NCBI GenBank assembly: GCA_038150265.1
Contig: JAYOTF010000016.1
Location: 1 to 64,000, forward strand
Length of the DNA: 64,000 nucleotides
Reading direction: 5' to 3'
Source: Deltaproteobacteria bacterium
GTDB lineage: Bacteria; SAR324; NAC60-12
In this document: positions 10,852 through 40,211 of the stretch, in pieces
Numbering within the stretch: position 1 is the first letter of the stretch
How the letters are laid out: every line of letters begins with the position of its first letter
Notes under the pieces: generated by a model
Database searches by the model: none
The model's input: the letters and a program-made list of their open reading frames with translations, nothing else
What the model was told of the DNA's origin: nothing
Position numbers and translations under genes: made by a program

Positions 10852-12387
10852 GTGATGACAACGCTCCGCCTGATTTTGGGAGACCAGCTCAACGCCCAGC
10901 ATTCATGGTTTCAGGAGGTGCGCCCAGACGTCACCTACGTCCTCATGGAGGTCCGGCAGGAAACCGATGCCGTCCGGCACCACCTGCAGAAGGTGGTCGC
11001 GTTTTTTGCTGCAATGCGCTCCTTTGCCGAAAGGCTCCGGCAGCAGGGACACCGGGTCGTGTACCTGACGCTGGATGATCCGCAGAACCAGCAAACGTTT
11101 CCAGGAAACCTGCAGGCGTTGCTCCGGGCGCATCAGGCCACCCGGCTGGAGTGGATGCTCCCGGACGAGTGGCGGGTGGACCAGCAGCTGCAGGAGTTTG
11201 CCGCCTCCCTTGAGATCGAAACGGAGGCGGTGGACTCCGAGCACTTCTTTGAGCCCAGGGAAACGCTTGCGACGCTGTTCCGGGGCAAGAAGACCTACCT
11301 GATGGAGTCGTTCTACCGCAAGATGCGGCAGAAGCACCAGATCCTTCTGGACGCTGGAAAGCCCGTTGGTGGCAAGTGGAATTACGACCAGGACAACCGG
11401 CAGCGTTACGATGGCGCGGTTCCGCTTCCAGAGCCCCTGCACTTTCACCGAGACGTGTCCGAGCTCGTGCAGCTGCTTCACGAGCAGGGCGTTGTCACCA
11501 TGGGCCACCTGGCGGACCACGACCTCATGTGGCCAACCACCCGGGAGCAGGCGCTTCAGGCGCTGGAAGCCTTTGTTCAAGAGCGGCTTCCGTTTTTCGG
11601 AACCTATCAGGATGCCTTGACCGAAGCGGGGCCCTTTCTCTTTCACTCCCTCCTGTCCTTTGCCCTGAATGTGAAGCTGCTGCACCCCCGGGAAGTGGTG
11701 GAGGCGGCTGTGCAGGCGTGGGAGCAGCGTCCGGACGTCATCAGTCTGGCGCAGGTGGAGGGATTCGTCCGGCAGATTCTGGGGTGGCGGGAGTTCATGC
11801 GAGGCGTGTACTGGGCCCAGATGCCGGAGTACCGGAGCATGAACTTCCTTGAGCATGACCGACCGCTGCCTGCGTGGTTCTGGACGGGCGACACGAAGAT
11901 GCGGTGCCTGCAGCAGGCCATCACCCAGTCGCTCCAGCACGCGTATGCCCACCACATTCAACGCCTGATGGTGACCGGGAATTTTGCGCTGCTGGCAGGA
12001 ATCGATCCCGATGCCGTGGATGCGTGGTACCTTGGCATTTATGTCGATGCGCTGGAATGGGTGGAGGTGACCAATACCCGGGGGATGAGCCAGTTTGCCG
12101 ATGGGGGGCTGGTGGCTACGAAGCCATATGTGGCCTCTGCCAACTACCTGAACCGCATGGGAGACCACTGCACCCGCTGCCCTTATGACCCCAAGTTGAA
12201 AACGGGTCCCCGGGCCTGTCCCTTCAATGCGCTCTACTGGGATTTCTTTGACCGGCACCGAGCACGACTTCAACGCAACCCACGCATCGGCATGACGTAC
12301 CGGACCTGGGATCGGATGGCACCAGAAGCCCAGCAGCAGCTCCTGCAGCAGGCCAGCTGGATCCGGGATCACCTGGAGGCGCTGTGA
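10852..12387 (+). CDS. FeS-BCP cryptochrome/(6-4) photolyase family protein (Agrobacterium PhrB/CryB type)
   Basis: LILGDQL, GGKWNYDQDNR, EGFVRQILGWREF, YAHHIQRLMV, KPYVASANY; four Cys (MRCL, HCTRC, ACPFN). Confidence 0.92.
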   Translation: MMTTLRLILGDQLNAQHSWFQEVRPDVTYVLMEVRQETDAVRHHLQKVVAFFAAMRSFAERLRQQGHRVVYLTLDDPQNQQTFPGNLQALLRAHQATRLEWMLPDEWRVDQQLQEFAASLEIETEAVDSEHFFEPRETLATLFRGKKTYLMESFYRKMRQKHQILLDAGKPVGGKWNYDQDNRQRYDGAVPLPEPLHFHRDVSELVQLLHEQGVVTMGHLADHDLMWPTTREQALQALEAFVQERLPFFGTYQDALTEAGPFLFHSLLSFALNVKLLHPREVVEAAVQAWEQRPDVISLAQVEGFVRQILGWREFMRGVYWAQMPEYRSMNFLEHDRPLPAWFWTGDTKMRCLQQAITQSLQHAYAHHIQRLMVTGNFALLAGIDPDAVDAWYLGIYVDALEWVEVTNTRGMSQFADGGLVATKPYVASANYLNRMGDHCTRCPYDPKLKTGPRACPFNALYWDFFDRHRARLQRNPRIGMTYRTWDRMAPEAQQQLLQQASWIRDHLEAL

Positions 12388-30435: not shown

Positions 30436-31326
30436 ATGACAGCTGCCACTTCCTCTTCTCCTTCCACCGCTCCCACCTTCCGGTTTCCCGGATGGCGAGC
30501 CCTGGACAAGAAAGCCTGCTTCACTCCGTCTCACCTCACCTGGGAGCGTCCGCTCGACCTGCATCCGGAGGCGGAGGTCACACGGTTCCTCATCCTCGGA
30601 GACACCGGCTCCGGCAATGAGGATCAGCACCGTGTGGCGCAAAACAGCTGGAAGACCTGCCAGGAACGCGGGGCCGACTTTGTGCTGCTGCTGGGAGACA
30701 ACTTCATCCAGCAGGGGGTGTCCGGACTGGAAGACGAGCAGTGGCGGACGAAGTTCGAGGAGGTGTATGAGCACGAGCTGCCGTTTTACGCCGTGCTCGG
30801 CAACCACGACCTCCGGGGCGACTGGCGGGCGCAGATCGCCTACAGCTACCAGAGTGAGCGCTGGATCATGCCCGGCGTCAACTATTCCTTTCAGGCGGGG
30901 CCCCTGGAGCTGTTCGGGATCAACACCACCTGTACCGTCTGCTCCCTGTGGACCCTGCAGCGTCCGAAGCGGACCCCGTGGCGGCTCGTCTTTGGGCACC
31001 GCCCCCTGGCCACCCGCGGCCGACACCGCGGGATGACGTGGCTCGAACGCCAGCTCATCAAGTGGGCGCATCCGGACGTCTACTGTGCCGGACACAACCA
31101 CCTGCTGGAGCACACCCGCTGGGGCGGCATCGACCTCATCACCTCCGGAGGCGGGGGCAACCCCATTCATCCGGCGCTGTATTCCGATGTGCCCGAGGGC
31201 GAATTTCTGGAGGAAACAATGGGGTACGTGTGGATGGAAGTGACGACCACCCGGCTGGAGGCCCACTTCTTCAATGACAACGGCGAGTTCCGTTACGTGT
31301 TCTCGCGTACCCGTCAGGAGAGCTGA
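30436..31326 (+). CDS. Metallophosphoesterase (purple/tartrate-resistant acid phosphatase-like)
   Basis: GDTG, GDNF, GNHD, GHRP, GHNH motifs. Confidence 0.88.
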   Translation: MTAATSSSPSTAPTFRFPGWRALDKKACFTPSHLTWERPLDLHPEAEVTRFLILGDTGSGNEDQHRVAQNSWKTCQERGADFVLLLGDNFIQQGVSGLEDEQWRTKFEEVYEHELPFYAVLGNHDLRGDWRAQIAYSYQSERWIMPGVNYSFQAGPLELFGINTTCTVCSLWTLQRPKRTPWRLVFGHRPLATRGRHRGMTWLERQLIKWAHPDVYCAGHNHLLEHTRWGGIDLITSGGGGNPIHPALYSDVPEGEFLEETMGYVWMEVTTTRLEAHFFNDNGEFRYVFSRTRQES

Positions 31327-32819
31327 GGTCGCTCTGAAGGAAGGGACAGCGTCACCTTGGTGCCCTGTCCCGGAGCACTCTGGAGGTGCAAGGCGCCGTA
31401 CTGAAGCTCCATGAGCTCCTTGCAGAGGATCAGCCCCAGTCCGGTGCCCTTCTCATTGGCCGTGCCCAGGGTGGTTCCTGACTGATCCAGCCGAAACAGC
31501 CGGGCCTGCTGCTCCTGCGTCATCCCCACGCCTTCGTCCTGAATCTGCACCAGCACATCCCGTCCCTCCATCCAGGCGTCTACCGAAATGCACCCACCGG
31601 TGTGTGTGAACTTGACGGCGTTGGTCAGCAGGTTCTGCAGCACCAGCGACATCATGGTGCTGTCGGCAAAGACCCGCAGGTTCCGGGGCACCTCGTGCCG
31701 TAACGCAATGCCCTTGCGCATCGCGTTTCCACGCACCAGGTCAAAGGTGTTCTCCACCAGGTCGGTCATCCCCAACGGCTCGGGCGCATAGCCGAGCTTC
31801 CCGGACTGCAACCGGGTCCACTGCATCAGGTTCTCAATCAGGTTGAGCAGGTTCCGGGCTCCCGTGTGGATGTGCTCGGCGTAAGAACGCAGCTCCTCCG
31901 GTGTGAAGCCCTGGAGGTCGCCCGAGAGGATTTCCGAGAAGCCCAGGATGGAGTGGAAGGGACTCTTGAGGTCATGTGAGATGACGGAGAAGAGCTTGTC
32001 CTTGTTGGCATTGAGCAGCTTCAGCTCCTCCTCCAGGGACTTCTTCTCCGTGATTTCCATCTGCACGCCCACGTAGTGCGTGACCTGGCCCTGTTCGTTC
32101 TTGAGCGGCCCCAGGGACAACTGGTTCCAGAAGGGGACTCCATCCTTGCGGTAGTTGAGCAGCTCCACGCGGCAAGGGCGCTCCTCTCGCAACGCCGACC
32201 GGATCTCTTCCACCGCCTCAGACGCCGTGTCACCGCCCTGCAGGAAGCGACAGTTCTTCCCAATCACCTCTTCCGGCTCATACCCCGTGATGCGGGTGAA
32301 GGCGCCATTGGCATAGATGATCGGACGGTCCGGACGCTGGAAATCCGCAATCGTGATGCCCTCCTGCGTGTCTTCCACGGCCCGGCGGATCAGGCTCAGC
32401 TGCTCCTCCATGTACTTGCGTGGCGTCACGCTCTCATGAGAAATCGCTGCCCAGCGCTGCCCCTCGGCACAAAACGCAATGGCCCGGAGCAGAAACCAGC
32501 GCCGCTCCTGGGGCGAGTGGCACGGGTACTCCCACTCAAAGCTCTGCAGGTCCCCTTCCAGCACCCGCTTCAGCCGCTCCGCAATCAGCGAGGCTTCCTC
32601 CTGCTCTGCGCCACAGGACGTTTCACAGACCTTGATGTAGTTGCTGCCAATACCGCTACTGGATTCCTCCCAGCCGTTCTCCATGCCAAATTGCCGCCAC
32701 GCCGCATTGACCGCAACAATCTCTCCGGAGCCATCCAGAATCGCCAGGTGGGAGTCCAGAGAATCCAGGGCTGCTTGCAAAAACGCGGGCATGGGAAGCA
32801 CGATTCGTGTGGTATCCAT
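31314..32819 (-). CDS. PAS-LOV sensor histidine kinase (putative blue-light receptor)
   Basis: LOV signature GKNCRFLQG with NYRKDG and FWN; H-box SHDLKSP; N-box NLLTNAVKF; G-boxes DEGVG and GTGLGL; no TM segment. Confidence 0.93.
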   Translation of the reverse strand: MDTTRIVLPMPAFLQAALDSLDSHLAILDGSGEIVAVNAAWRQFGMENGWEESSSGIGSNYIKVCETSCGAEQEEASLIAERLKRVLEGDLQSFEWEYPCHSPQERRWFLLRAIAFCAEGQRWAAISHESVTPRKYMEEQLSLIRRAVEDTQEGITIADFQRPDRPIIYANGAFTRITGYEPEEVIGKNCRFLQGGDTASEAVEEIRSALREERPCRVELLNYRKDGVPFWNQLSLGPLKNEQGQVTHYVGVQMEITEKKSLEEELKLLNANKDKLFSVISHDLKSPFHSILGFSEILSGDLQGFTPEELRSYAEHIHTGARNLLNLIENLMQWTRLQSGKLGYAPEPLGMTDLVENTFDLVRGNAMRKGIALRHEVPRNLRVFADSTMMSLVLQNLLTNAVKFTHTGGCISVDAWMEGRDVLVQIQDEGVGMTQEQQARLFRLDQSGTTLGTANEKGTGLGLILCKELMELQYGALHLQSAPGQGTKVTLSLPSERPQLS

Positions 32820-32919
32820 AGCGTGCTTTCTGGGTTGGGTTGAGAGAGTCTTCTGCGGAAGTGCAGCAGATAATGCGGGAAGCTGTGGTCCGAACCGCCC
32901 TTTCTGGAGGGAAACTCGT

Positions 32920-33052
32920 GACAAATTTATTGTAATATGAGCTAATATGAGAAAATTGTAAACGTGTTTCCAATTTTCTTTTGTAAACTAACACGAAATT
33001 CACGAATTCTCACGTGAAATAGGGGCTGGACGGGTTTGGTGCCTGAAATGCA
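32920..33052. promoter_or_regulatory. AT-rich divergent control region with direct repeats and a weak sigma54-like element
   Basis: TAATATGAG x2, TTGTAAAC x2; TGGTGCCTGAAATGCA (GG-N10-GC) at 33037-33052. Confidence 0.45.
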
Positions 33053-33160
33053 GACAGATGGGGATCACATCGGTGTGCTTTTGCGTTAACCCCTGAAGAG
33101 ACGGGCCTCATGGGAGCACCAACAGAGTCCACTTCCGGAGACGCTCAAACCAAGGAATCC

Positions 33161-35089
33161 ATGAAAATCTTAATCATTGACGATGAGCCCTACGTCGAGG
33201 CTCTGGTCAAAGGATGGTTCCGGGGGACCAGCTATCAGTTCGACTACCTGGCCAACGGCGAGCCGCTGATGCACAATGGCGCCAGCATGGTGAGCGAGTA
33301 CGACCTCGTTTTGCTGGACAAACAGATGCCCGAGGTCGACGGCCTGGAACTCGGCAAGCGCCTCCGGGAGCTGTACCCCAACCTGGTCACCGTGATGGTC
33401 ACCGGGTTTGAAAGCACGGAAACGCTCGTCTCGGCGTTCCGGGACTGCGGGTTTGACGACTACATCTCCAAACCCTTCGACTCGCGCAAGCTCCAGGACG
33501 CGCTCCTGCGGGCGCAAAAGCTCTTGCAGCAGCGCAAGGCCTACTCCAGTGAGTACCAGCTGAACGAGTCGCTGCGCATGCGGGCCGTGGAGCGTCCTCA
33601 TGCACTGGTCGGACAGTCTCCCCGTTTTCAGGAAATGCTGGGGCTGGTCCACAAGTTTGCCCCGCTCGATGGCCCGGTTCTCATCCGGGGCGAAACCGGC
33701 AGCGGGAAGGAGCTCGTGGCCCGCGAGATCTACAAGTACAGCCGCCGCTCCGCAGGCCCGTTTGTCGCCGTCAACTGTGGGGCCATTCCGGCCGAGCTGT
33801 TTGAGAGTGAGCTGTTCGGACACGAAAAGGGCTCCTTCACCGGCGCCATCAGCAAGAAGGAAGGCCTCGTCAAGCTGGCCGATGGAGGCACCCTCTTCCT
33901 CGATGAAATCGGAGACACGCCCCTGCCGCTGCAGGTCAAGCTCCTCCGGATGCTGCAGGAAGGCGAGATCCTCCCCGTGGGCAGCACCCGGACCCTGAAG
34001 GTCAACGTCCGCGTCATCAGCGCCACCAATCAGTCGCTGGAAGAACTCGTCAAGGCCCGCCAGTTCCGGGAAGACCTCCTCTACCGCCTCAACGTCTTCT
34101 CCATTCATGTCCCCAGCCTCCGGGAACGCATTGAAGACATCCCCCTGCTGGCCCAGCATTTTGTGGAGAAGTGCGGGAACCTGAACCCCCTGGTTCGCGA
34201 CATTGAACCCGAGGCCCTGCAGTGGCTGTCGGGCTTGCCCTGGCCGGGCAACATCCGGGAGCTGGAAAACGTCATCCAGCGGGCCTGTGCGCTGGCCGAA
34301 CAGACCCAGCTGACGCTGCGGGACTTCAGCACCGACCCCACCTTCAACGAGGTCGAAGTGACTCCGCCTCCCGCGGCTCCCAACTTCCTCCGCAAGCCCA
34401 CTGGGTATGCGCGGCTGTGGGAAACCTTCCGGGCCCATGACTCGAAGCTCTGGACCATCCAGAACCTCGAGCAGGCTCGCGAGCAGCTCAAGGAAATCCT
34501 CAGCACCGCCCAGTACGTCAAGTTCGGACACTTCGGGCGCATCCAGACCGAAGAAGACCGCGAGCTGGACCTCTACCTCAGCTACGTCAGCCCCCTGACG
34601 CAGGACCTGGAAGAGGTCTCCATCAAGTTTGCCTTCTACAGCTCCGAATCCATTGGACGGGCGCCCATCTCGCCAACCCTGCAGTTCCGGGGAGACCGCA
34701 TCCGCCTCGACTCCGTGGTGCAGCCGGTCAAGAAGGGGCTTCCGGATACCTACCTCTTCAACCTGCTCTACCCCACTCGGCACCGGAACCAGACCATCAG
34801 CATCTCACAGCAGCACGTCATCCGGGCCCTGGTCCTCCGGTACGCCCAACTCGACGTCCCCCCTCGTCCTCTGAAAAAAATCTTCAGCGAGGTCATGGAC
34901 TTCCTGGTGGATGACGAGTTGATGAACCAGGGCTGCGAACTGCCTCACGATGGGTTGGAAGCCATGCGGGGCTGCCTCTGCAGCAAGGCACACGTCTTCT
35001 CCGGATTCTCCAGCAAGCTCAAAGCGAATCCGGACCTCGTCCACGCAGAAATCCTCAAGGTCTTCAATCAATACGGAATCGCTGCCTGA
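33161..35089 (+). CDS. NtrC-family sigma54-dependent response regulator with atypical long C-terminal domain
   Basis: REC (IIDDE, LLDKQMP, SKPF); AAA+ GETGSGKE, ESELFGHEKGSFTGA, FLDEIG, WPGNIREL; alternative start at 33110. Confidence 0.93.
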   Translation: MKILIIDDEPYVEALVKGWFRGTSYQFDYLANGEPLMHNGASMVSEYDLVLLDKQMPEVDGLELGKRLRELYPNLVTVMVTGFESTETLVSAFRDCGFDDYISKPFDSRKLQDALLRAQKLLQQRKAYSSEYQLNESLRMRAVERPHALVGQSPRFQEMLGLVHKFAPLDGPVLIRGETGSGKELVAREIYKYSRRSAGPFVAVNCGAIPAELFESELFGHEKGSFTGAISKKEGLVKLADGGTLFLDEIGDTPLPLQVKLLRMLQEGEILPVGSTRTLKVNVRVISATNQSLEELVKARQFREDLLYRLNVFSIHVPSLRERIEDIPLLAQHFVEKCGNLNPLVRDIEPEALQWLSGLPWPGNIRELENVIQRACALAEQTQLTLRDFSTDPTFNEVEVTPPPAAPNFLRKPTGYARLWETFRAHDSKLWTIQNLEQAREQLKEILSTAQYVKFGHFGRIQTEEDRELDLYLSYVSPLTQDLEEVSIKFAFYSSESIGRAPISPTLQFRGDRIRLDSVVQPVKKGLPDTYLFNLLYPTRHRNQTISISQQHVIRALVLRYAQLDVPPRPLKKIFSEVMDFLVDDELMNQGCELPHDGLEAMRGCLCSKAHVFSGFSSKLKANPDLVHAEILKVFNQYGIAA

Positions 35090-36447
35090 TGCCCCAGCCG
35101 TCCCTCTTCCTGTTCCGCCGGGATCTGCGGTTGCACGACAACACGGGCCTGCTTCATGCGCTTGCGCAGGGGGCTCCCGTTTTGGCCGCCTTCATCTTTG
35201 ATCCTCGCCAAACGGAGCCGCACCCGTATCGCAGCGAGCCCGGATTTGCCTTTCTGCTGAATGCCCTTCAGGCCCTTGACCACGAGCTGCGCGCCTCCGG
35301 AGGGCGCCTGCACTGCTTCCAGGGACCTCCGGAAGACGTCCTCAAGGCGCTGATTCCTGAGCTCTCGTCGGTGCACGTCAACCGAGACTTCACGCCCTTC
35401 AGTCGCCAGCGTGATCAGCAACTCGAGGCCCTCTGCCAGGAACACGGCACTCCCTGGACCGCGCACAACGACCTCCTCCTCTTGCCTCCGGAAGCTGGAG
35501 TGAAGGCCAACGGAAGCCCCTACACCGTTTTCACTCCGTTCTACAAAAACGCTCAGAAGCAGCTCATTGACACTCCGGTGCCCTTTACGCAGGGCTCCTT
35601 TGTCACCGAAACGCCTCAAGCCGCTGTGGCCTTCCAGACCTCGCTGGAGGCCTTTGGAACCCCAGAAGCCGGAGGACGTCCGGAAGCGCTCAAGATCCTC
35701 CAACGTGCTGCCGACTTCCAGCAGTATGAAGGCACCCGTGATTTCCCGGAACAGGCGGGCACCACCCGCCTCTCGGCGCACCACAAGTTCGGAACGGTTT
35801 CAGCGCGGGAAAGTTGGCACCACCTCGCTCAAGCCCTGGGTGCCGACAGCGGACTCGTCCGGCAGCTGTACTGGCGGGACTTCTTCACCCACATCGCCTG
35901 GCACTTTCCACATGTGTTTGGGCAGGCCTTTCAGAAGCGCTTCGACGCGGTTCCCTGGAAAAACAACCCGGCGCACTTTGACGCGTGGTGCCAGGGAAAA
36001 ACCGGGTTTCCCATTGTGGATGCCGGCATGCGGGAGCTGAACGAGACCGGCTACATGCACAACCGCGCCCGGATGATCACGGCGTCCTTCCTGACCAAGA
36101 ACCTGCACATCGACTGGCGGTGGGGCGAGCGCTACTTTGCCCAGAAGCTGGTGGACTACGACCCCTGCGTCAACAACGGAAGCTGGCAGTGGGCGGCCTC
36201 CACCGGATGTGACGCGCAGCCCTACTTCCGGATCTTCAATCCGTGGCTCCAGCAGCAGCGCTTCGACCCTGCGGCTCGTTACATCCATCGCTGGGTTCCC
36301 GAGCTTCAGGGCACCTCCCCCCGGCTGCTGTCCAAGCTCGAGGACTCCCCACAGGCGCTGCTGGGGTACCCGGCGCCCATCGTTCAGCACAAGGCTTCCA
36401 GCCAACACGCCAAGCAGATGTTTGCCCAACTTTCCTCCTCAGCATGA
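35089..36447 (+). CDS. phr: CPD DNA photolyase / cryptochrome family protein
   Basis: FRRDLRLHDN, YTVFTPF, QLYWRDF, GYMHNRARM, WRWGERYF, RIFNP; TGATG overlap with upstream gene. Confidence 0.95.
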   Translation: MPQPSLFLFRRDLRLHDNTGLLHALAQGAPVLAAFIFDPRQTEPHPYRSEPGFAFLLNALQALDHELRASGGRLHCFQGPPEDVLKALIPELSSVHVNRDFTPFSRQRDQQLEALCQEHGTPWTAHNDLLLLPPEAGVKANGSPYTVFTPFYKNAQKQLIDTPVPFTQGSFVTETPQAAVAFQTSLEAFGTPEAGGRPEALKILQRAADFQQYEGTRDFPEQAGTTRLSAHHKFGTVSARESWHHLAQALGADSGLVRQLYWRDFFTHIAWHFPHVFGQAFQKRFDAVPWKNNPAHFDAWCQGKTGFPIVDAGMRELNETGYMHNRARMITASFLTKNLHIDWRWGERYFAQKLVDYDPCVNNGSWQWAASTGCDAQPYFRIFNPWLQQQRFDPAARYIHRWVPELQGTSPRLLSKLEDSPQALLGYPAPIVQHKASSQHAKQMFAQLSSSA

Positions 36448-36833
36448 CCTCCCGACTTCTTCCCTGGTGGCTCGGCCTGCACGCCCTGACGTTTTGGGCG
36501 CTCGGCGCGCTCTTCCTCCTTGATCCTGAAACCTGGGGCACTCAGGTTTCCCTCACGCCCGCTCACCCTGCCGGCATTGCCGAGCTGATGACGCTTTACG
36601 GCGGGCTGGAGTGTGCCCTCGCGGCGCTGCTGACCTGGGGCGTCCTGAAGCCTCACTTCCGGATCACGGCCCTGCAGATCCTGCTCGTCTGCTACGCGGG
36701 CCTCACGTTCGGGCGGACCCTGGGGCTCCTCCGCCATGACCTCTGGGACCACGGGTTCACGCTGCAGCTGTTTGCCATTGAAGCCGGCACCACCCTCATC
36801 AGCGCGTTCTTCTACTTCCGAGGCCAGTCATGA
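36444..36833 (+). CDS. DUF4345-like membrane protein
   Basis: 4 TM helices; ELMTLYGGLE and FGRTLG motifs; ATGA overlaps at both ends. Confidence 0.7.
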   Translation: MTSRLLPWWLGLHALTFWALGALFLLDPETWGTQVSLTPAHPAGIAELMTLYGGLECALAALLTWGVLKPHFRITALQILLVCYAGLTFGRTLGLLRHDLWDHGFTLQLFAIEAGTTLISAFFYFRGQS

Positions 36834-37816
36834 GCGCTTCTCCCCAACACTGCATCGTCATCGGCGCCGGTATCTCCGGGCTCATGGCCGCTACCGAAAT
36901 GCAGGCCTTTGGGCTCCGGGTGACCGTGCTGGACAAGGGACGCGGCGTTGGAGGCCGGATGGCCACCCGACGCATCAACACGGCCTCCGGACCGGCTTTG
37001 CTCGATCATGGCGCCCAGTTCTTCACGGTCCGGGACCCGCTGTTTGCAGAATGGGTGCAGCAGTGGCGAACCCTGGAGCTCGTTCAGGAGTGGACCCGGG
37101 GCTTCGGCAAGGAAGACGGGCACCCCCGCTACTTCTGCCCCAACGGCATGACTGCCATTGCCAAGCACCTCGCTTCCCAGCTGACCGTCCGGACGCAAGC
37201 GCGCGTGCAGACCCTGCACCTCCGTGACGAAGGGTGGCAGCTCACGCTTGAGTCCGGAGAGGTGCTGCAGGCAGACGGACTCCTGCTGACGGCCCCGGTG
37301 CCCCAAAGCCTGACGCTGTTGCGGTCCGGGAACCTGGAGTTGACGCAGCAGGACCAGAAGAACCTCGAGTCCCTGCAGTACGACCCGTGCCTGGCAGCAC
37401 TTGTTCTTGTGGAAGAGAGCCCGGCGCTTCCGGAGCCTGGGGCCCTGCAGCTTCATGCGGAACCGCTGGCATGGATTGCCGACAACGCCCGGAAGGGCAT
37501 CTCCGATCGCCCCGCGCTGACTCTGCATGCGGGTCCGGAGTTTAGCGCCGCCCACTGGGACGCCGACCCGCAGGCCACCGCTCAGCGACTGATGGACGCC
37601 GCTCAGGAGCATGCCACCTTCCAGCCCATTGAAGCGCAGCTGCACCGCTGGCTCTACAGCCAGCCCCGGAATCCGTGGCCGGAGCCTTCGTACCTTCCGC
37701 AGTGTGTACTGCCACTGGCACTGGCTGGAGATGCCTTTGGACACGCCCGTGTCGAAGGCGCGACCCTCTCTGGACTGTCGGCAGCCGAGCAGCTCCTGAT
37801 CCGTTTTTCCCGCTGA
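36830..37816 (+). CDS. Renalase-like FAD-dependent oxidoreductase
   Basis: IGAGISGL, DKGRGVGGRMATRR, DHGAQFFT, HRWLYS, VEGATLSG. Confidence 0.9.
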   Translation: MSASPQHCIVIGAGISGLMAATEMQAFGLRVTVLDKGRGVGGRMATRRINTASGPALLDHGAQFFTVRDPLFAEWVQQWRTLELVQEWTRGFGKEDGHPRYFCPNGMTAIAKHLASQLTVRTQARVQTLHLRDEGWQLTLESGEVLQADGLLLTAPVPQSLTLLRSGNLELTQQDQKNLESLQYDPCLAALVLVEESPALPEPGALQLHAEPLAWIADNARKGISDRPALTLHAGPEFSAAHWDADPQATAQRLMDAAQEHATFQPIEAQLHRWLYSQPRNPWPEPSYLPQCVLPLALAGDAFGHARVEGATLSGLSAAEQLLIRFSR

Positions 37817-37856
37817 TGCACCTGTTTGTTTTGACTCCTCTTGACCTGAATCCTGT

Positions 37857-38882
37857 ATGAAGACTGGAATCCTCCTTGTCAACCTGGGCACTCCGGACGC
37901 GCCCCGTCCTCCGGAAGTCCGCCGCTACCTCAAGCAGTTCCTCAGTGACCCTCGGGTCATTGACATCAACCCGGTGCTGCGTTGGCTGCTGCTGAACCTG
38001 ATCATCCTCCCGATCCGCTCCCGCAAGTCCGCCAAGATCTACCAGACGGTCTGGACAGAAGCCGGGTCGCCTCTGCTGGTGTTTGGGCAGCAGCTGCAAA
38101 GCGCGCTTCAAGAACGCATGGGCGAAGTGCCGGTGGTACTGGCAATGCGCTACGGGAACCCGTCCATTGAGTCGGCCATGACGCAACTGCGGCAAGCCGA
38201 GTGTGACCGGGTCGTGATGGTGCCGCTGTTTCCGCAGTACGCCTCCAGCTCCTCCGGATCGGCCATTCAGGCGGTTTATGAGGAAGCTGGGCGGCACTGG
38301 AACACGCCTCACCTGGACGTCGTGCCTCCCTTCTTCGACCGGACTGAGTTCCTCCAGGCCTTTGCTGAAATCGGAGCGCCGTACCTTCAGGAGCGTCCGG
38401 ATCACGTTCTGTTCAGCTTCCATGGCATTCCAGAACGCCACGTCCGCAAGAGCGATGACACCGGAAAGTGGTGCCTGAGCCAGCCCGATTGCTGCGCCAC
38501 CTTGCGTCCGGAAAACCGAAACTGCTACAGCGCCCAGTGCTACCACACGGCCCAGCGCCTCGCCGCGCTGCTGGGGCTTCCAGAAGGAAGCTGGTCGGTG
38601 TCCTTTCAGTCTCGGCTGGGACGCGACCCGTGGCTCAAGCCCTACACCGACCACGTCATTGAGGAGCTCGGGCAGGCAGGAAAGAAGCGACTGGCCGTTT
38701 TCTGCCCCGCCTTTGTGGCCGACTGTCTGGAAACGCTGGAAGAAATTGGCGAGGAAGCGCTGGAGACGTTCCAGGAAGCCGGAGGCGAGCACCTGCAGCT
38801 CATCCCCTCCCTCAACGCCCACCCGGCTTGGGTCTCAGGGCTGGAGCAGCTCGTCCGGGAGCACCTGCCTGAGCCCGTCTGA
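37857..38882 (+). CDS. hemH: Ferrochelatase
   Basis: LVNLGTP, AMRYGNPS, PLFPQY, SFHGIP, FQSRLG, DCLETLEE. Confidence 0.96.
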   Translation: MKTGILLVNLGTPDAPRPPEVRRYLKQFLSDPRVIDINPVLRWLLLNLIILPIRSRKSAKIYQTVWTEAGSPLLVFGQQLQSALQERMGEVPVVLAMRYGNPSIESAMTQLRQAECDRVVMVPLFPQYASSSSGSAIQAVYEEAGRHWNTPHLDVVPPFFDRTEFLQAFAEIGAPYLQERPDHVLFSFHGIPERHVRKSDDTGKWCLSQPDCCATLRPENRNCYSAQCYHTAQRLAALLGLPEGSWSVSFQSRLGRDPWLKPYTDHVIEELGQAGKKRLAVFCPAFVADCLETLEEIGEEALETFQEAGGEHLQLIPSLNAHPAWVSGLEQLVREHLPEPV

Positions 38883-38941
38883 AAGCGCCCGGTTCTTGCA
38901 TTTTCGGGGGCAGCCCGCATCGTTTCCTGACAGGAGCCCCC

Positions 38942-39328
38942 ATGAAATTCATTGAGCTGTCGCGGAGTAACTACTTCCGCGTGACCAGTCGCTCGGCCTT
39001 CAACGCCATCTGCGTCTCCTACGGCCTCCGCCCCCTTGCTCCGCAGTCTGGTGCCAAGCGTGGAGAGGTCAGCTTCGTCATTTCTGATGGCAAGTCCACC
39101 AAGGGAGAGAGCATCCACTCCTTCAAGAAGGAGCTGGCGGCCATTCTGGAAGACGGTGAGGTGTGTATCGTCCGGACCATCGGGTTCGTCCAGGACTCAA
39201 TTGAGGAACTGCACGGCAAGACGATTGCGTTCAATTCCTCAGGCGAGGAAATCGTCATCGACCTGGATGACGTCTATGGGCAGGTCGAAGAAGAGTGGGA
39301 CGCCTCTGCTTCACCAGTAGAGGAATGA
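38942..39328 (+). CDS. Hypothetical protein (128 aa)
   Basis: AGGAG RBS; gene-like codon usage; followed by a hairpin. Confidence 0.75.
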   Translation: MKFIELSRSNYFRVTSRSAFNAICVSYGLRPLAPQSGAKRGEVSFVISDGKSTKGESIHSFKKELAAILEDGEVCIVRTIGFVQDSIEELHGKTIAFNSSGEEIVIDLDDVYGQVEEEWDASASPVEE

Positions 39329-39334
39329 GGACCG

Positions 39335-39352
39335 CCCCTGGCGAACCAGGGA
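39335..39352. terminator. Short hairpin between convergent genes
   Basis: CCCTGG-CGAA-CCAGGG. Confidence 0.45.
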
Positions 39353-39365
39353 CGCCCGGCAGGCT

Positions 39366-40211
39366 TCAGTCTGCGATGGTCCGCTGCGTCTGTTCGCCGA
39401 GGCCTTCAATGCCCAGCCGCATCGTCTGCCCGGTCTTGAGGTAAATCGGCTCCGGCTTCTGTCCCATGCCGACTCCGGGAGGAGTTCCGGTTGAGATGAT
39501 GTCTCCAGGCTGAAGGCTGAAGAACTGGCTGAGGTAGCTCACCAAATGGGCCACGCCATACACCATGGTCTGGGTGCTGCCGTTCTGGTAGCGATGCCCA
39601 TCCACTTCCAGCCACATTCCCAGGTTCTGCGGATCGGGCACTTCGTCTCGTGTCACCAGCCACGGACCAATCGGTCCGAAGGTGTCGCAGCTCTTGCCCT
39701 TCACCCACTGCCCGGCCCGCTCCAGTTGGAAGGCCCGCTCGGAGAGGTCGTTGACCACGCAGTACCCCGCGACGTGTTCCAGCGCCTGCGCCTCGTCGAC
39801 GTACTTTGCCGGCTTGCCAATCACCACGCCCAGCTCCACTTCCCAGTCGGTCTTTTCAGAACCTCGTGGAATGCGCACGTCGTCATCCGGACCACAGATC
39901 GCGCTCGTCGCCTTGAAGAAGATCACCGGCTCTGGCGGCACCTGCATTCCGGATTCGGCGGCGTGGTCGGCATAATTCAGTCCAATGCAGACAAACTTAC
40001 CCACCCCCTGCACACAGGGCCCCAGCCGAGGATTCCCAGACACTTCCGGGAGAGACTGCGGGTCAAGCCCCGCGAGGTGACTGAGGTTTTCCGGAAGCAA
40101 CGTCTCTCCACCAACGTCTGTGATGACGCCGGAGAGGTCTCGGATGGTTCCATCTGCGTCCAGCAGTCCCGGCTTCTCTTCTCCCGGATTTCCGTAGCGC
40201 AACAGCTTCAT
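39366..40211 (-). CDS. Fumarylacetoacetate hydrolase family protein (LRA6-like 2,4-diketo-3-deoxy-L-rhamnonate hydrolase candidate)
   Basis: CIGLNYADH, DWEVEL, NDLSER, KGKSCDTF, TGTPPGVG; lies next to the rhamnose cluster. Confidence 0.88.
   Translation of the reverse strand: MKLLRYGNPGEEKPGLLDADGTIRDLSGVITDVGGETLLPENLSHLAGLDPQSLPEVSGNPRLGPCVQGVGKFVCIGLNYADHAAESGMQVPPEPVIFFKATSAICGPDDDVRIPRGSEKTDWEVELGVVIGKPAKYVDEAQALEHVAGYCVVNDLSERAFQLERAGQWVKGKSCDTFGPIGPWLVTRDEVPDPQNLGMWLEVDGHRYQNGSTQTMVYGVAHLVSYLSQFFSLQPGDIISTGTPPGVGMGQKPEPIYLKTGQTMRLGIEGLGEQTQRTIAD

Follow-up and report, generated by a model that had tools for sequence, protein, structure and literature searches.

Genes and features at the locus

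The subject of this study is a divergent gene pair encoding a histidine kinase with a LOV domain and a sigma-54 enhancer-binding protein (hereafter the activator). The pair lies in a window of 64,000 nucleotides (positions 1 to 64,000 of contig JAYOTF010000016.1, assembly GCA_038150265.1) from an uncultured, aquatic SAR324 bacterium. Behind the activator gene follow genes for a photolyase (phr), a DUF4345 protein, a renalase-like oxidoreductase and a ferrochelatase (Table 1), and all six genes of the initial annotation were recovered at their positions from open reading frame coordinates and Pfam or PDB matches. The activator stop overlaps the phr start in TGATG (35087-35091), ATGA couplings join phr to the DUF4345 gene (36444-36447) and the DUF4345 gene to the renalase-like gene (36830-36833), and hemH, next in line, begins 40 bp after the latter, uncoupled. 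On the basis of the sequence we consider it probable that kinase and activator form a blue-light two-component switch over a photoprotection regulon.

Table 1. Features of the kinase-activator locus, in window coordinates
Feature	Position	Strand	Remarks
PAS-LOV-HisKA-HATPase_c histidine kinase, soluble, 501 aa	31314..32819	-	Pfam; His282, N, G1 and G2 boxes intact
LOV domain	32034..32399	-	NCRFLQ (Cys190), LNYRKDG, FWNQ and GVQ segments
N-terminal PAS domain (PAS1)	32415..32790	-	conserved NY..C and YPCH..E.RWF motifs
Candidate enhancer site 1, TGACAAATTTATTG	32919..32932		117 bp upstream of promoter; p=0.006 versus 500 shuffles
Candidate enhancer site 2, TGAGAAAATTGTAA	32948..32961		29 bp past site 1; spacing identical in G001 and G002
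Candidate -24/-12 promoter, TTGGTGCCTGAAATGCA (GG-N10-GC)	33036..33052	+	faces activator-phr operon
Sigma-54 enhancer-binding protein, 642 aa, REC + Sigma54_activat + AAA_lid	33161..35089	+	Pfam, residue checks
229-aa C-terminal domain of activator, no known family	34400..35086	+	predicted alpha/beta fold
Cyclobutane pyrimidine dimer (CPD)-type DNA photolyase, phr	35089..36447	+	Pfam; start overlaps activator stop
DUF4345 small hydrophobic protein	36444..36833	+	Pfam E 4e-9
Renalase-like FAD oxidoreductase	36830..37816	+	PDB 4zcc, E 5e-30
Ferrochelatase HemH	37857..38882	+	Pfam; sole match in genome

The window's own genome (G000) has 2992 predicted genes and is 97.8% complete. Relatives were sought in 88 SAR324-phylum genomes with a family subset of 45, many of them incomplete and akin; g1 denotes the window's genus (three genomes) and g2 a second genus with phr behind the activator. 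Contigs from three of four public runs supported the stretch in 30 of 30 bins with depth, with no indels listed and no single piece covering it entirely. Public datasets holding at least half of the sampled words were labelled estuary or aquatic metagenomes, one being unlabelled, and no RNA dataset was found among the public runs listed as containing the stretch.

The LOV histidine kinase

The kinase agrees with its initial description as a soluble PAS-LOV histidine kinase with an intact GKNCRFLQG segment: the highest Kyte-Doolittle 19-residue window is 0.97, giving no membrane segment, and Cys190 is encoded at nucleotides 32250-32252. Its LOV domain has the GXNCRFLQ motif with the predicted photoactive cysteine and the conserved flavin-binding Asn and Gln residues, and its kinase part the H, N, G1, F and G2 boxes expected of a HisKA kinase. 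Compared with the sequences of solved structures, the LOV domain had 89 matches at E<=1e-25, most of which are named as LOV proteins, and its motif is the only one among the predicted genes of G000. A longer kinase start (TTG, 32924) was ruled out by alignment. PAS1 matched no PDB sequence; its alignment has conserved Cys and His residues. The SHDLKSPFHS motif of the docking helix (DHp) is invariant in all 11 aligned kinases, nine of which, from four genera, carry LOV with the intact cysteine, and the G010 kinase has LOV and lacks PAS1. G000 also encodes a stand-alone BLUF protein on C3 (L090:5189-5617), amid acyl-CoA and thiolase-type genes, which is present in G002 too.

The activator and its C-terminal domain

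The initial label 'NtrC-type' holds for the REC-AAA+ core of the activator and not for its C-terminus, where HTH_8 is absent and the last 229 residues lie outside Pfam. The receiver has the DD, D, T and K residues of group I bacterial enhancer-binding proteins (bEBPs), including D53, T81 and K104, and the core contains Walker A (GETGSGKE), a GSFTGA loop, Walker B and arginine fingers. Across the family these are kept in 24 of 24 rows, with GAFTGA or GSFTGA as the loop and GAFTGA in most orthologues; GSFTGA is listed as tolerated and compatible with activation in the relevant part of PMC4641369. Where relatives of the activator are named, they are proteins of SAR324. Its start is probably at 33161, because the in-frame ATG at 33110, which was ruled out, is missing in G002.

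No HTH_8 was detected at E 0.01 in the whole protein or at E 10 in the C-terminal domain alone, while five other G000 activators end, by eye, in typical helix-turn-helix (HTH) tails. The 229-residue domain had no Pfam match even at E 10 and no PDB sequence match. Its fold was predicted with confidence (pLDDT 86.5, pTM 0.85), and with this model Foldseek returned no match at E<=0.001, a wide structure search reached at best Z 2.0 and no usable Atlas match was obtained; such absent matches fall short of proof of a new fold. A profile of the domain matched no more than 16 of 1.84 billion representative proteins, and the domain occurs in 18 of the 88 SAR324-phylum genomes, including 13 of the 14 that carry this LOV. 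The cluster to which one domain-bearing match belongs includes WP_386718914.1 of Litoribrevibacter euphylliae. In the full-length matches examined it always stood behind the receiver/AAA+ module, in the output position.

These features suggest that the C-terminal domain may be a DNA-binding output domain. Modelled separately, its helical half matched AphA-like 2rkh best (Z 4.8, root-mean-square deviation 3.3, 73 aligned), and about 20 of 50 rows, all at Z<5, were PadR-like or other winged-helix proteins by their titles; as the model was poor (pLDDT 62), this resemblance is only a hint. One distant protein, P0033, has an apparent HTH-like segment before the domain, as judged by eye, which makes DNA binding by the C-terminal domain a prediction only. 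Between two and five paralogous activators with the same domain occur in each of G004, G008, G010 and G017, in unrelated signalling contexts (L019, L022-L026, L028, L030-L032).

Linkage and cargo in related genomes

The initial annotation had proposed a synteny survey, and this showed that kinase-activator linkage is kept across five genera. In a tree of 29 rows (24 domain-bearing activators and five outgroups), the 12 kinase-linked activators formed one clade with support 99/97, and all 12 keep L[IV]KGW in receiver helix 1. With three further g2 genomes added, the clade comprised 15 genomes. The LOV kinase adjoins the activator in 11 of these (G000, G001, G002, G004, G010, G014, G020, G024, G060, G061 and G063); in G003 and G062 a contig end interrupts the locus, and in G008 and G017 the kinase is the same except for a clean deletion of LOV. 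The LOV-deleted orthologues lie at L017:3454-4695 and L018:5338-6573.

Genes behind the activator differ by genus, with phr in two genera and a cluster of oxidoreductase, DUF1365 and cfa genes in two others. Specifically, the gene behind the activator is phr in 11 of the 15 clade genomes (g1 and g2), and the DUF4345-renalase-hemH tail is restricted to the three genomes of g1. Genes for an FAD oxidoreductase, DUF1365, cfa, an SRPBCC-like protein (our own reading, with no Pfam match), DUF4345, SDR and a pyrimidine-dimer glycosylase follow the activator in G004 and in L162, a metagenome contig, and G017 shows the beginning of the same cluster. The kinase gene is followed by a lipocalin gene in G004 and G017. 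In G008 the cluster lies on a separate contig that begins at the oxidoreductase gene, so that its adjacency to the activator is only presumed; BLUF, AhpC-like, MAPEG and phr genes are added to it, and the BLUF gene (L069:5285-5719) is a possible sensor swap. No BLUF gene was found in G017, a genome that is 88% complete. DUF4345 is also part of the cfa cluster in each of G004, G008 and L162. Judged by predicted gene families, the cargo of the activator varies yet remains photoprotective, and these families overlap the LitR and RpoE-ChrR regulons as far as described in parts of PMC9758184, PMC4336711 and PMC6852236.

Candidate sigma-54 promoters

G000 has rpoN and, if a relaxed consensus is accepted, -24/-12 elements are predicted at the target operons, which is the promoter arrangement expected for a bEBP. 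In g1 and g2 the pattern TTGGT-N8-TGCA, which has the GG-N10-GC spacing of sigma-54 sites, is directed towards the activator, and it was found in only one of 1079 G000 upstream regions, that of the activator itself. Another pattern, GGYAY-N5-TTGY, precedes the oxidoreductase gene in nine of 12 activator-bearing genomes and in none of four ChrR/MerR genomes, against a background of 5 of 1483 G000 regions; this is an in-sample count, as the pattern was derived from the same sites, and three oxidoreductase loci without a located start were omitted. G010 is among the three misses, and there the operon begins two genes earlier and has its -24/-12 site at that position. As an independent control, glnK showed TGGCAY with TTGCT or a relaxed TGAA in G000 and four of five other genomes, with a low palindrome score. 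At the -12 position, TGAA or TGTA frequently takes the place of TTGCT in the sigma-54-type promoters of this lineage, as upstream of glnK in G000 (C29:32304), G001 and G020. A minus-strand -24/-12-like site in G010 (L027:10254-10549) faces a threonine dehydratase gene, where other genera have receiver-kinase genes.

The same parts may obey another logic, with a kinase active in the dark, a light-switched phosphatase, or an activator that works independently of sigma-54 (as a repressor or a sigma-70-type regulator) through its C-terminal domain. The direction of regulation differs from one known LOV kinase to another. Phosphorylated AlgB represses its outputs, according to the portion of PMC6932827 that bears on it, the SAR324 activator has no Fis-type HTH, and in G001 enhancer site 1 overlaps the start codon of a receiver gene. 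The conserved AAA+ activation motifs described above, including the activation-compatible GSFTGA, speak against such a logic, as do the conserved -24/-12 sites at the target operons and the finding that positions 31000-39500 contain a single sigma-70-like site, which equals the shuffle mean and faces the kinase. We regard this alternative as improbable.

Candidate enhancer palindrome and possible unlinked regulon members

A palindrome near TGATAAATTTATCA was first spotted by eye in the kinase-activator intergenic region. Scanning G000 for similar sequences gave 13 sites with at most two mismatches, one of them 174 bp before an unlinked cfa operon, whose leader lies at C1:196860-197030. With a matrix trained on seven sites from g3, g7 and g9, all six g1 regions had p<=0.006, and in none of nine paralogue regions did the best site reach p<0.05. 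Subsequent inspection of the unlinked cfa operon of G010 revealed a perfect copy (p=0.002) and a -24/-12 site upstream, and L162 has paired copies. Sites are often paired, 27-33 bp apart and 90-165 bp ahead of the promoter.

When 711 G000 regions were scanned with the palindrome and sigma-54 matrices combined, the activator, gpx, cfa and PTPS-folE occupied ranks 3, 4, 5 and 6, behind two small unknown genes. The top -24/-12 score belongs to a gene for a 72-aa protein without a known family (L091:6314-6532; G000 C2:136313-136531), which also has a palindrome-like site. The gpx gene encodes a glutathione peroxidase that seems to have a signal peptide and is divergent from PTPS-folE (L089:5049-6943; G000 C29:38048-39942); their intergenic region has sigma-54-like sites facing each way and, in the centre, a palindrome that is near-perfect in G002. 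It is possible that gpx and PTPS-folE are genus-specific regulon members.

Regulator replacement at the cfa operon

In sister genera the oxidoreductase-DUF1365(-cfa) operon stands next to other regulators. In G015 and G021 rpoE-chrR lies divergently beside it, and in G054 and G058 a gene for a CarH-like MerR protein, which scores under the CarH cut-off, comes before it. Over the 45 family genomes, ChrR above cut-off occurs in two and a CarH-like MerR in four, and the activator in none of these six; conversely, no activator-bearing genome has ChrR above cut-off. This exclusion is a pattern without a statistical test, drawn from genomes many of which are incomplete and related. G000 itself has only a two-cupin orphan below the TIGR02451 cut-off with no sigma gene adjoining, the MerR-B12-binding regulator of the relatives was not found in this 97.8% complete genome, and its sole PF02607 match is in a frame of 1263 aa, a length that suggests MetH. 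Gene context thus supports the view that an RpoE-ChrR or CarH-like regulator replaces the activator at the cfa operon in sister genera.

These data also bear on whether the kinase-activator pair controls something else, with the photostress genes as passengers. In favour of this stand the G010 locus, which has no adjacent photostress gene, the occurrence in unrelated contexts of paralogous activators that share the C-terminal domain, and the sugar transporter gene that follows phr in g2. Passengers would not readily account for two almost disjoint photostress sets behind orthologous activators, for shared motifs that recur at unlinked cfa operons including that of G010, or for three regulators that are mutually exclusive in the family genomes searched, and we consider this explanation very unlikely.

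Downstream and other photolyase-family genes

HemH has an insert CX5CCX9C (residues 206-223, window 38472-38525), the spacing of which we take to be that of Myxococcus-type [2Fe-2S] ferrochelatases. The genome has three photolyase-family genes: phr, a DPRP (photolyase-related) gene at window 10855-12387 (PF04244, E 4.5e-80) and a DASH cryptochrome gene on C38. Neither of the latter two was retained as a regulon member, as the DPRP gene showed no motif by eye and the DASH cryptochrome gene ranked 440 of 1483. A rhodopsin search in G000 gave no match, and the control set likewise gave none.

Proposed mechanism and its weighing

In the proposed switch, a flavin-Cys190 adduct formed under blue light would alter the kinase or phosphatase output, and His282 would hand phosphate to Asp53 of the activator, with phosphorylation probably raised by light. 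The activator would bind paired TGAY-N6-RTCA-like sites via its C-terminal domain and then remodel the sigma-54 polymerase. This would lead to transcription of activator-phr-DUF4345-renalase(-hemH) as a positive feedback loop, the unlinked oxidoreductase-DUF1365-cfa operon would also be switched on, and in g1 gpx and PTPS-folE would perhaps be further targets. The initial reading, a relay of light to a sigma-54 activator, is supported at the level of sequence, because kinase-activator linkage and -24/-12 sites are conserved, the cargo differs yet stays photoprotective and the regulator is replaced in sister genera; direct light-dependent phosphotransfer is a prediction.

Several observations weigh against the switch as proposed. 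The motif patterns were seen by eye in data that include the window, so the intergenic tests were not blind, and an unsupervised search for palindromic motifs yielded only AT-rich sequence. The best palindrome site reached p<0.05 in none of 12 g2 regions, one of four control regions scored p=0.03, and the gpx/folE sites were found only in G000 and G002 and at none of 28 other folE and three other gpx loci. The phr gene of G010 was rejected as a regulon member, having neither motif upstream. The candidate promoters depart from the tGGcacg/tTGCt consensus, and the sigma-54 matrix alone ranks the two at 21 and 100 of 1483. The renalase-like gene and hemH, the latter being the only copy found, are linked only in g1, and all counts over relatives come from related genomes, which are non-independent samples.

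Two further points concern the signal itself. The G008 and G017 kinases lack the whole LOV domain, yet kinase, activator and motifs are retained, so that the module can do without LOV. Moreover, in most loci a single-receiver gene stands ahead of the kinase and may be its true substrate. Redox or oxidative stress sensed through PAS1 could be the main input to an activator that does run the sigma-54 photostress regulon, with LOV as a tuning element, or the single receiver could carry or drain the signal. The LOV-less kinases of G008 and G017 retain PAS1, the DHp motif and the regulon, PAS1 has conserved Cys and His residues, and in G001, g2, G004, G008 and G017 a receiver gene runs in the same direction as the kinase gene. 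On the other side stand the LOV domains with intact cysteine in most aligned kinases, the G010 kinase that has LOV without PAS1, and the BLUF gene of the G008 cluster, which could stand in for LOV. The single-receiver gene is missing in G000 and G002 (best G000 match elsewhere, 36% identity), where kinase and activator are still intact; its first helix is unlike that of the activator and differs from genus to genus. We judge this alternative unlikely, though likelier than the two discussed above, and retain the blue-light switch as the preferred reading.

Comparison with known systems and implications

General-stress LOV kinases of Caulobacter (LovK-LovR), Brucella and Erythrobacter belong to the HWE/HisKA_2 type and feed the general stress response. 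Like them the SAR324 kinase is soluble, and most SAR324 relatives also have a LovR-like single receiver; it differs in being of the HisKA type (PF00512), with 152 bits for NF052306 against a cut-off of 450. Among group I bEBPs (NtrC, ZraR, AtoC), the REC-AAA+ core, catalytic motifs and paired sites 90-150 bp ahead of a -24/-12 promoter are alike, whereas in the SAR324 activator HTH_8 is replaced by the 229-aa domain and the protein scores under the cut-off of each NCBIfam equivalog shown (NtrC, 358 versus 559 bits).

The closest precedent is BphP-AlgB(-KinB) of Pseudomonas aeruginosa, in which a photoreceptor kinase phosphorylates an NtrC-family regulator with GAFTGA. That system, as portrayed in part of PMC6932827, has a biliverdin phytochrome as sensor, a C-terminal HTH in AlgB and repression of biofilm and virulence as output, whereas the SAR324 pair has a predicted LOV sensor, a novel output domain and photoprotective cargo. 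Targets overlap more with class II LitR and short LOV proteins of Pseudomonas (PplR/PpSB-LOV, PmlR2/PmSB-LOV), where LOV input leads to phrB, ufaM, FAD oxidoreductase, SDR and folE; that regulator is of the MerR type and its short LOV is kinase-less, with neither phosphorelay nor sigma-54 activator in the account given by the pertinent text of PMC9758184. RpoE-ChrR (ECF11) of Rhodobacter and Shewanella is an extracytoplasmic function (ECF) sigma/anti-sigma switch with a reactive-oxygen trigger and a singlet-oxygen regulon (excerpts of PMC6852236 and PMC4336711). The SAR324 system thus has BphP-AlgB-like wiring and LitR/RpoE-ChrR-like output and is a member of neither group. The initial annotation had not recognised this arrangement as described, and likewise a literature search, with subscription papers largely outside it and supplements excluded, found no LOV kinase acting on a sigma-54 activator, nor this SAR324 locus; the main text of PMC8364033 mentions neither LOV nor photolyase, and PMC12826048 has no bearing on the subject.

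A wider proposal combines three elements: a new route from LOV to a sigma-54 activator for control of the photo-oxidative stress regulon, beside LitR/CarH and RpoE-ChrR, a C-terminal domain that is a new class of TGATAAATTTATCA-recognising DNA-binding domain, and three regulators that displaced one another within one family. To us this proposal seems evenly balanced between right and wrong. The candidate DNA-binding domain is supplied with a predicted binding site, and the compact set of kinase, activator and promoter is a potential tight blue-light expression switch, which is plausible because sigma-54 promoters are silent without their activator. If the proposal is true, the LOV-to-sigma-54 route would join the short list of light-stress regulators, and a single widespread aquatic family would have exchanged its regulators while the regulon stayed fixed.

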